This document shows positions 22,344 through 23,192 of a stretch of 64,000 nucleotides of DNA, in pieces. The stretch comes from Escherichia phage SholemSchwarzbard. The first letter of the stretch is position 1; every line of letters starts with the position of its first letter. The stretch lies in sequence record PP925840.1; one strand, given 5' to 3'. Under the pieces are notes generated by a model. That model had not been told where the DNA came from. It ran no database searches and worked only from the letters and a program-made list of their open reading frames with translations. The position numbers were made by a program, and so were the translations under genes.

Positions 22344-23192
22344 TTAATCAACTGCTATTGGATGAATAGCATTAAACTTATGAAATGCTTCTGATTTTTC
22401 TTTACGTGAAACGCACATGCGAAGAACCTTTAATGGCTCGTCTTCTTCACCCAACGATTTTCGTTTTTCAATATTCGACGTTTTCCAACGAGCTTGCTCT
22501 GGAAACTCTCTATTGATTTGCTCAAGCGCTCTATTATGTTTAGAATTACTACGAATTGAACTACACCCACCAGGAGCTTGCGCTTTTCCAGATACAACCA
22601 GATATTTGAACAAGGCCAAATGCGGATAACCTTGATTAATTAAATTGAGAAATGCATACATATCTTCGCACAAATCAATTTTTCCATACCCAATTTGTTC
22701 TGTCGTAAGTTTTCCAAGGTCATACCATGTATTCGTGAATCCATATGAATTTTCACGATAATTACCCCAAGATGAAGTAATTTTAAAAATTGGTAGGCGA
22801 GCATGGCCATGATAATACCCGCAATCCATGGCATCCTCAACATATTGAATCAATTCATAGAACTGTTCACGAGTCAATTGATTGACTTTATCTACGCAAC
22901 GACGATCATCTCTTTTTCGCATTGAACTCATACGAATAGTAGTATCATCGTCAATCATCCAGATTCGTTGACCTGCATACATATCGGTAATTGCTTTACG
23001 AGTACCGGCAATTCCGTTTACATCATCAGGAATAGTTATAATTTTAGCTCTAGACCCATAGGCATCATAATAAGCTTTTTCTTCATGTTCACGCACTACA
23101 ATATGGGGTTCATAATCAGTCGGAAACATATCAAGGGCAGAAACTGCCCCGACACGCTGATAACTTGGAATTACGAATTGAATCATTTCCAC
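22344..23192 (-). CDS. putative DNA glycosyltransferase (GT-A-like, D-D-D motif), 282 aa, at the T4 beta-gt locus
   Basis: not T4 beta-gt (351 aa); contains RIWMIDDDTTI; synteny between uvsX and 42 suggests the T2/T6-type beta-glucosyl-HMC alpha-glucosyltransferase. Confidence 0.6.
   Translation of the reverse strand: MEMIQFVIPSYQRVGAVSALDMFPTDYEPHIVVREHEEKAYYDAYGSRAKIITIPDDVNGIAGTRKAITDMYAGQRIWMIDDDTTIRMSSMRKRDDRRCVDKVNQLTREQFYELIQYVEDAMDCGYYHGHARLPIFKITSSWGNYRENSYGFTNTWYDLGKLTTEQIGYGKIDLCEDMYAFLNLINQGYPHLALFKYLVVSGKAQAPGGCSSIRSNSKHNRALEQINREFPEQARWKTSNIEKRKSLGEEDEPLKVLRMCVSRKEKSEAFHKFNAIHPIAVD

Follow-up and report, generated by a model that had tools for sequence, protein, structure and literature searches.

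Locus Layout and the Start of the Gene

In phage T4, the order uvsX-segA-b-gt-42 places the gene for a 351-aa beta-glucosyltransferase next to gene 42. What occupies the equivalent locus in Escherichia phage SholemSchwarzbard, and which sugars would its product be expected to put on the phage DNA? We addressed these questions with a 64,000-nt stretch of the ~167-kb genome (PP925840.1), hereafter the window. The whole of it is a segment of a Tequatrovirus genome and shares ~97% identity with several sequenced phages. An earlier note on this DNA had pointed to a 282-aa ORF between uvsX and gene 42, in the place of the 351-aa T4 enzyme. The T4 layout is as the note had it, and the ORF, its position and its characteristic RIWMIDDDTTI stretch also stood: the minus-strand ORF 22344..23192 reads through 282 aa from a GTG. 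The start, in turn, had to be revised. The GTG is merely the first mechanical start of the ORF, and two codons further on, an ATG at 23186 shares bases with the gene 42 stop codon TGA, in the sequence ATGA. The 843-nt CDS beginning at this ATG is the annotation in every orthologue inspected (T2, AR1, WilhelmHis, CP, EL, EH2 and Geo). Because of the overlap and of the uniform annotation, the protein most likely comprises 280 aa, such that the gene, here called ba-gt, would span 22344..23186 (minus strand, stop included), and the two extra codons GTG-GAA (23187..23192, minus strand), which fall within the terminal part of gene 42, probably do not contribute to the ba-gt protein.

Directly upstream of ba-gt lies gene 42 (23183..23923, minus strand), whose product, dCMP hydroxymethylase, makes hm-dCMP; the assignment is based on a match to the thymidylate-synthase family (PF00303, E = 1.3e-15) and on the counterparts in AR1, WilhelmHis and T4, which are annotated as dCMP hydroxymethylase. 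The ATGA arrangement suggests that ba-gt is most likely translationally coupled to gene 42. The downstream landmark is uvsX (21085..22266, minus strand; Pfam T4_UVSX_C/RecA), separated from ba-gt by a 77-nt spacer (22267..22343) without segA, as in T2 and T6, while T4 has segA there. A scan of 22000-24400 supported neither a private promoter nor a terminator, the counts being those expected from shuffled sequence (12 vs. 10.3; 1 vs. 1.1). The GC content is even across the locus (0.35-0.38), so nothing points to a recent foreign insertion.

A seg-like homing endonuclease gene was found elsewhere in the window, between rpbA and gene 45 (30770..31657, minus strand, 295 aa; PHROG 655, E = 4e-33). 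It directly precedes gene 45, whose start it overlaps with its end, and gave no significant Pfam match. The gene is limited to 24 phage records, and the close relative WilhelmHis lacks it.

Family Identity and Relation to the T2, T6 and T4 Enzymes

The ba-gt product matches the Pfam family of TET-associated glycosyltransferases (TAGT, PF20691) with E = 1.2e-9 and 38.9 bits, the curated gathering threshold being 27.5; the match covers residues 5-209 of the 282-aa ORF and positions 2-205 of the 205 in the profile. It also matches PHROG 842, "beta-glucosyl-HMC-alpha-glucosyltransferase" (E = 2.2e-89). At the DNA level, 474 phage records, nearly all from Tequatrovirus, match the full-length gene at ≥90% nucleotide identity; beta-glucosyl-HMC-alpha-glucosyltransferase is a frequent annotation there, with ba-gt used in the BASEL phages. 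Protein homologues reach down to 28% identity. Given the 474 records, the reach of the homologues and a Pfam score above the cut-off, ba-gt is, as judged from sequence comparison, a real gene and no chance ORF.

The alignment with the T2/T6 beta-alpha glucosyltransferases, proposed in the earlier note as a check, showed 99% identity. Over 280 aa, T2 differs by two substitutions (R11H and P251S in T2) and T6 by three (Y40N, D55G and R106H, record-specific T6 lesions aside), and the EH2 protein is identical at all 280 positions. The window gene also shares with its T2/T6 counterparts the length, the position between uvsX and gene 42, the ATGA coupling and the partner genes; beyond the absence of T2's change at an invariant site, the sequence gives no arguable functional difference. 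The T2/T6 enzyme, also called g-gt or ggt, is the glucosyl-DNA beta-glucosyltransferase of EC 2.4.1.28; Winkler and Rueger reportedly were the first to clone and sequence its genes, in 1993.

The guess that the locus encodes a T2/T6-like enzyme adding a second glucose thus gains support from the T2/T6 identity, PHROG 842 and synteny. So does the statement that the protein is unrelated to T4 b-gt: BLASTP of the two proteins gave a best E of 2.2, and no beta-gt Pfam match appeared at E ≤ 1. A T4-type beta-gt was not found elsewhere in the 64-kb window either (tblastn of T4 b-gt, best E = 1.5). What the two enzymes have in common is the genomic position, with gene 42 upstream and uvsX downstream, and, as predicted for ba-gt, UDP-glucose as the donor and the formation of a beta bond to the modified DNA of the phage (PMC13216743). 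They differ in fold, which is GT-B in T4 b-gt (PDB 1JG7) and GT-A in the window enzyme, and in acceptor: T4 b-gt uses the hydroxymethyl group of bare 5-hydroxymethylcytosine (hmC), whereas ba-gt would use the glucose of alpha-glucosyl-hmC.

Database labels around the hmC glucosylation pathway are heavily affected by annotation noise (RefSeq, AP018813/AP018814). RefSeq copies label gene 42 "thymidylate synthase", AR1 and the RB phages carry ba-gt under the gene name "b-gt", and the T2 record AP018813 gives alpha-gt as "N-acetylmuramoyl-L-alanine amidase" and lists gene 41 as "major capsid protein".

Predicted Fold and Conserved Motifs

The homologue search yielded 11 clusters, which limits the alignment depth for structure prediction; the AF2 model, built on a 10-sequence alignment, reached pTM 0.72 and a mean pLDDT of 69.7. 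The first 80 residues scored 85-95, but pLDDT dropped below 50 in residues 126-151 and 203-211 and at the C-terminus, so that active-site details drawn from the model are tentative. It comprises a single Rossmann-like nucleotide-diphospho-sugar transferase domain with a DxD motif, conserved in the family, after a core beta-strand; the two-domain GT-B fold of T4 b-gt was not observed. No solved structure was matched significantly at the sequence level (profile search best E = 0.23; single-sequence search nothing below E = 1.6). The best, sub-threshold profile match was the GT2 glucosyltransferase AvpGT (9jma), where IPSYQR aligned with IPTYNR and MLDDD with LDDDD.

The D-D-D motif, from which a GT-A fold had been suspected, corresponds to D79-D81 in the 280-aa numbering (22944..22952, minus strand, GAC GAT GAT) and is the predicted DxD metal/UDP-sugar binding site. 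In a family alignment of ten homologues ranging from 99% down to 32% identity it is invariant, and in the model it follows strand E74-77, within the confident part; together with the LDDDD alignment and the domain architecture, this bears the suspicion out. The IPSYQR motif (residues 6-11; 23154..23171, minus strand) is predicted to open the GT-A core and to bind the nucleotide. Here I6, P7, S8, Y9 and R11 are invariant, the only exception for R11 being phage T2, with H11. In the third motif, C173-E174-D175 (22662..22670, minus strand), D175 is invariant and E174 nearly so. The functions of DDD, IPSYQR and E174/D175 are thus predicted from conservation and the GT2-like fold; D175 may be regarded as a candidate catalytic base, since inverting GT2 enzymes carry an analogous acidic "xED" motif. 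A beta product made from UDP-alpha-glucose implies inversion.

Compared with inverting GT2 enzymes of the GT-A fold (BcsA, TarP, GlfT2 and AvpGT 9jma), ba-gt shows 6-17% identity, would use a DNA-linked glucose as the acceptor, lacks membrane and polymerase domains, and bears a phage-specific C-terminal region (residues ~200-280, poorly modelled). The TAGTs of TET/5mYOX-encoding phages share with it the Pfam family, the GT-A architecture with DxD and the modification of DNA 5-hydroxymethylpyrimidines after replication. The match to that family model is distant, however, and the source of hmC is different, namely the nucleotide-level gp42 pathway in the window vs. TET oxidation of 5mC within DNA; moreover, the acceptor of the window enzyme would be an existing sugar. 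The second arabinosyltransferase of Mosigvirus (RB69/Bas46-type) follows a comparable two-step scheme, in which modified cytosine is first mono- and then di-glycosylated (PMC13390438), but there with arabinose, a 5-hydroxy-dC precursor, and other genes at other locations.

Partner Genes and the Proposed Pathway

In the window, ba-gt co-occurs with alpha-gt and with genes 42 and 56 for hmC synthesis, all intact. The alpha-gt gene (35619..36821, minus strand) encodes a 400-aa DNA alpha-glucosyltransferase (PF11440 over the full length, E = 1.8e-237), the enzyme that makes the alpha-glucosyl-hmC substrate for ba-gt; it is one residue away from the EH2 protein and two from that of T2. Gene 56 (15847..16365, minus strand; 172 aa from an internal ATG; PF08761 dUTPase_2, E = 1.1e-6) encodes the dCTPase/dCDPase excluding unmodified dC from phage DNA, and at the corresponding position WilhelmHis has a 519-nt CDS with the annotation "dCTPase / dCDPase". 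The dCMP hydroxymethylase and alpha-gt, both named in the earlier note, are therefore present.

These data allow us to propose the following pathway. The gene 56 dCTPase and the gene 42 dCMP hydroxymethylase would ensure that the phage DNA is built with hmC, and alpha-gt would place one alpha-linked glucose on hmC, modifying about 2/3 to 3/4 of it. The ba-gt enzyme, with its GT-A fold and inverting GT2-like architecture, would hold UDP-glucose through the DDD motif and a divalent metal and attach a second glucose by a beta-1,6 bond to the first one, thereby giving gentiobiosyl-hmC. Its synthesis would be tied to that of the hydroxymethylase by common transcription with gene 42 and by translational coupling via the ATGA overlap.

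Gene identity, synteny, intactness, partner genes and fold were established for the window copy directly, and beta-1,6 transfer onto alpha-glucosyl-hmC is supported via orthologues, namely by the T6 deletion and by LC-MS of EH2 and CP. In T6 lacking ba-gt, alpha-glucosyl-hmC alone remains, and sensitivity to the Brig1 glycosylase is altered (PMC11078745), as is sensitivity to the BapA deglucosylase (bioRxiv 10.64898/2026.02.25.707755). In Tequatrovirus phages of the Durham collection that have alpha-GT and TAGT but no beta-GT, LC-MS revealed 5-hmdC, alpha-glucosyl-hmdC and alpha-gentiobiosyl-hmdC; the authors also remarked that TAGT is syntenic with the T4 beta-GT (PMC13390438). Taken together, the results make it very likely that the gene encodes a T2/T6-type beta-glucosyl-HMC-alpha-glucosyltransferase acting with alpha-gt in the full pathway outlined above.

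Alternative Readings and the Extent of Di-Glucosylation

Membership in PF20691 could also mean that the enzyme glycosylates bare hmC directly, as TET-associated TAGTs do, and solitary TAGT homologues without alpha-gt or beta-gt do occur in 288 of 753 genomes, so that some members must use another acceptor (PMC13216743). For the window enzyme we consider this very improbable: deletion of the 99% identical T6 gene removes gentiobiosyl-hmC and leaves alpha-glucosyl-hmC (PMC11078745; bioRxiv 10.64898/2026.02.25.707755), and in the related Durham phages with alpha-GT and TAGT no beta-glucosyl-hmdC was detected by LC-MS and about one third of hmC stayed bare, which would be unexpected if bare hmC were usable (PMC13390438). 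Even less credible is the view of the ORF as an inactive remnant or a protein with a non-glycosyltransferase role. Lesions are found in laboratory stocks: codon 10 is an amber in T6 record MH550421, and T6 record AP018814 has lost one codon of DDD. Since they occur there, ba-gt appears dispensable for laboratory growth; the window copy, however, is full length, keeps all homologue-invariant residues and is the allele of EH2, a phage with measured gentiobiosylation (PMC13390438).

The T6 lesions themselves may have arisen in the stocks or may reflect errors in sequencing. In MH550421, CAG is changed to TAG at Gln-10, and the CDS is annotated from Met20. In AP018814 and its RefSeq copy, an in-frame 3-nt deletion turns DDD into DD. 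Junction-centred searches found DD otherwise only in phage HP3.2, and DDD in the other T6 record and several hundred more; being confined to these entries, the deletion was rejected as a cause of the T2/T6 difference and is regarded as a stock- or record-specific variant. In ~60 records, DDD is encoded by GAT-GAT-GAT, a slippage-prone repeat.

A more serious alternative concerns the amount of product. The gentiobiosyl-hmC level ranges from ~5% in T2 to ~72% in T6 (PMC11078745) though the enzymes are 98-99% identical, and ba-gt of the window might contribute just as little as in T2 (PMC6024577; PMC11078745), leaving mostly mono-alpha-glucosyl-hmC and a few percent of gentiobiosyl-hmC. The window alpha-gt is indeed of the T2/EH2 allele, and Geo, BGP and EL, with hmdC, glucosyl and gentiobiosyl forms at ~1:2:2, show that the level varies (PMC13390438). 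Nevertheless, we consider a T2-like outcome unlikely. The window has neither R11H, a change at an invariant position, nor P251S, and its protein is that of EH2 and one residue (V30A) away from that of CP; both phages belong to the group with about one third 5-hmdC, about two thirds gentiobiosyl-hmdC and mono-glucosyl forms at background level (PMC13390438). EH2 also has the window's alpha-gt allele, with a single difference (A368T).

Counted against the window proteins, the other alleles are as follows. T2, with its two ba-gt substitutions and two alpha-gt differences, has ~70% alpha-glucosyl and ~5% gentiobiosyl forms, and T6, with three ba-gt substitutions and 32 alpha-gt differences, has ~3% and ~72%, respectively (PMC11078745). 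The three ~1:2:2 phages share a ba-gt allele with seven substitutions (I50V, M89I, R95K, C97R, V101I, A202S and Q203H), and the alpha-gt of Geo, with 33 differences, is T6-like. As these phages have a ba-gt allele of their own and Geo a T6-like alpha-gt, the sugar ratio may track allele combinations. For the SholemSchwarzbard DNA, we predict a T6/EH2-like state with ~1/3 bare hmC, ~2/3 gentiobiosyl-hmC and little mono-glucosyl-hmC, because its ba-gt is identical to that of EH2 and its alpha-gt is one residue off; this prediction of a high level rests on one identical allele, that of EH2.

The comparison of T2 with EH2 deserves attention. Their alpha-gt proteins are one residue apart and their ba-gt proteins differ only by R11H and P251S, yet gentiobiosyl-hmC amounts to ~5% vs. 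~67%, a more than tenfold difference. The R11H change affects codon 11 within IPSYQR (23154..23156 in the window, which has R11). H11 occurs only in T2 stocks, in eight records identical to the T2 sequence (seven named T2, plus SV76, whose length equals that of a T2 record), and R11 is kept in the nearest non-T2 backbones, RB32 and EC.W14-2. Since the alpha-gt proteins are nearly identical, only R11H and P251S separate the two ba-gt proteins, and R11 is otherwise invariant in the family, the T2 allele may be a hypomorph. We tentatively put forward, as a possibility somewhat short of even, that natural ba-gt alleles set the ratio of mono- to di-glucosyl hmC, with R11H (with or without P251S) causing the low level in T2 and the window carrying the fully active EH2-type allele. 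A limited literature search found no link between R11H and low gentiobiosylation.

Discussion

The gene, its family, fold and role have been published, and our analysis adds no new biology in this respect. That ba-gt occupies the place between uvsX and gene 42 is a known and ordinary feature, the majority state in the genus. T4 is the exception, because the survey finds alpha-GT or beta-GT paired with TAGT to be common; alpha-GT together with beta-GT occurs in 6 of 753 genomes, and beta-GT is rare, its usual place being the uvsX/gene 42 locus (PMC13216743).

Which host defences are effective against a T-even phage depends on the sugars carried by its hmC. Gentiobiosyl-hmC is resistant to the BapA deglucosylase and, in vitro, to the Brig1 glycosylase (PMC11078745; bioRxiv 10.64898/2026.02.25.707755). 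The ~25-33% of hmC that stays bare is still open to attack, as is the short-lived mono-glucosyl form, and cleavage by GmrSD-type enzymes persists (PMC13216743; PMC11078745; bioRxiv 10.64898/2026.02.25.707755). Finding the alpha-gt and ba-gt set in SholemSchwarzbard, with the allele of heavily di-glucosylated phages, thus helps in forecasting how sensitive it is to restriction and which hosts it can infect, for instance in phage therapy.
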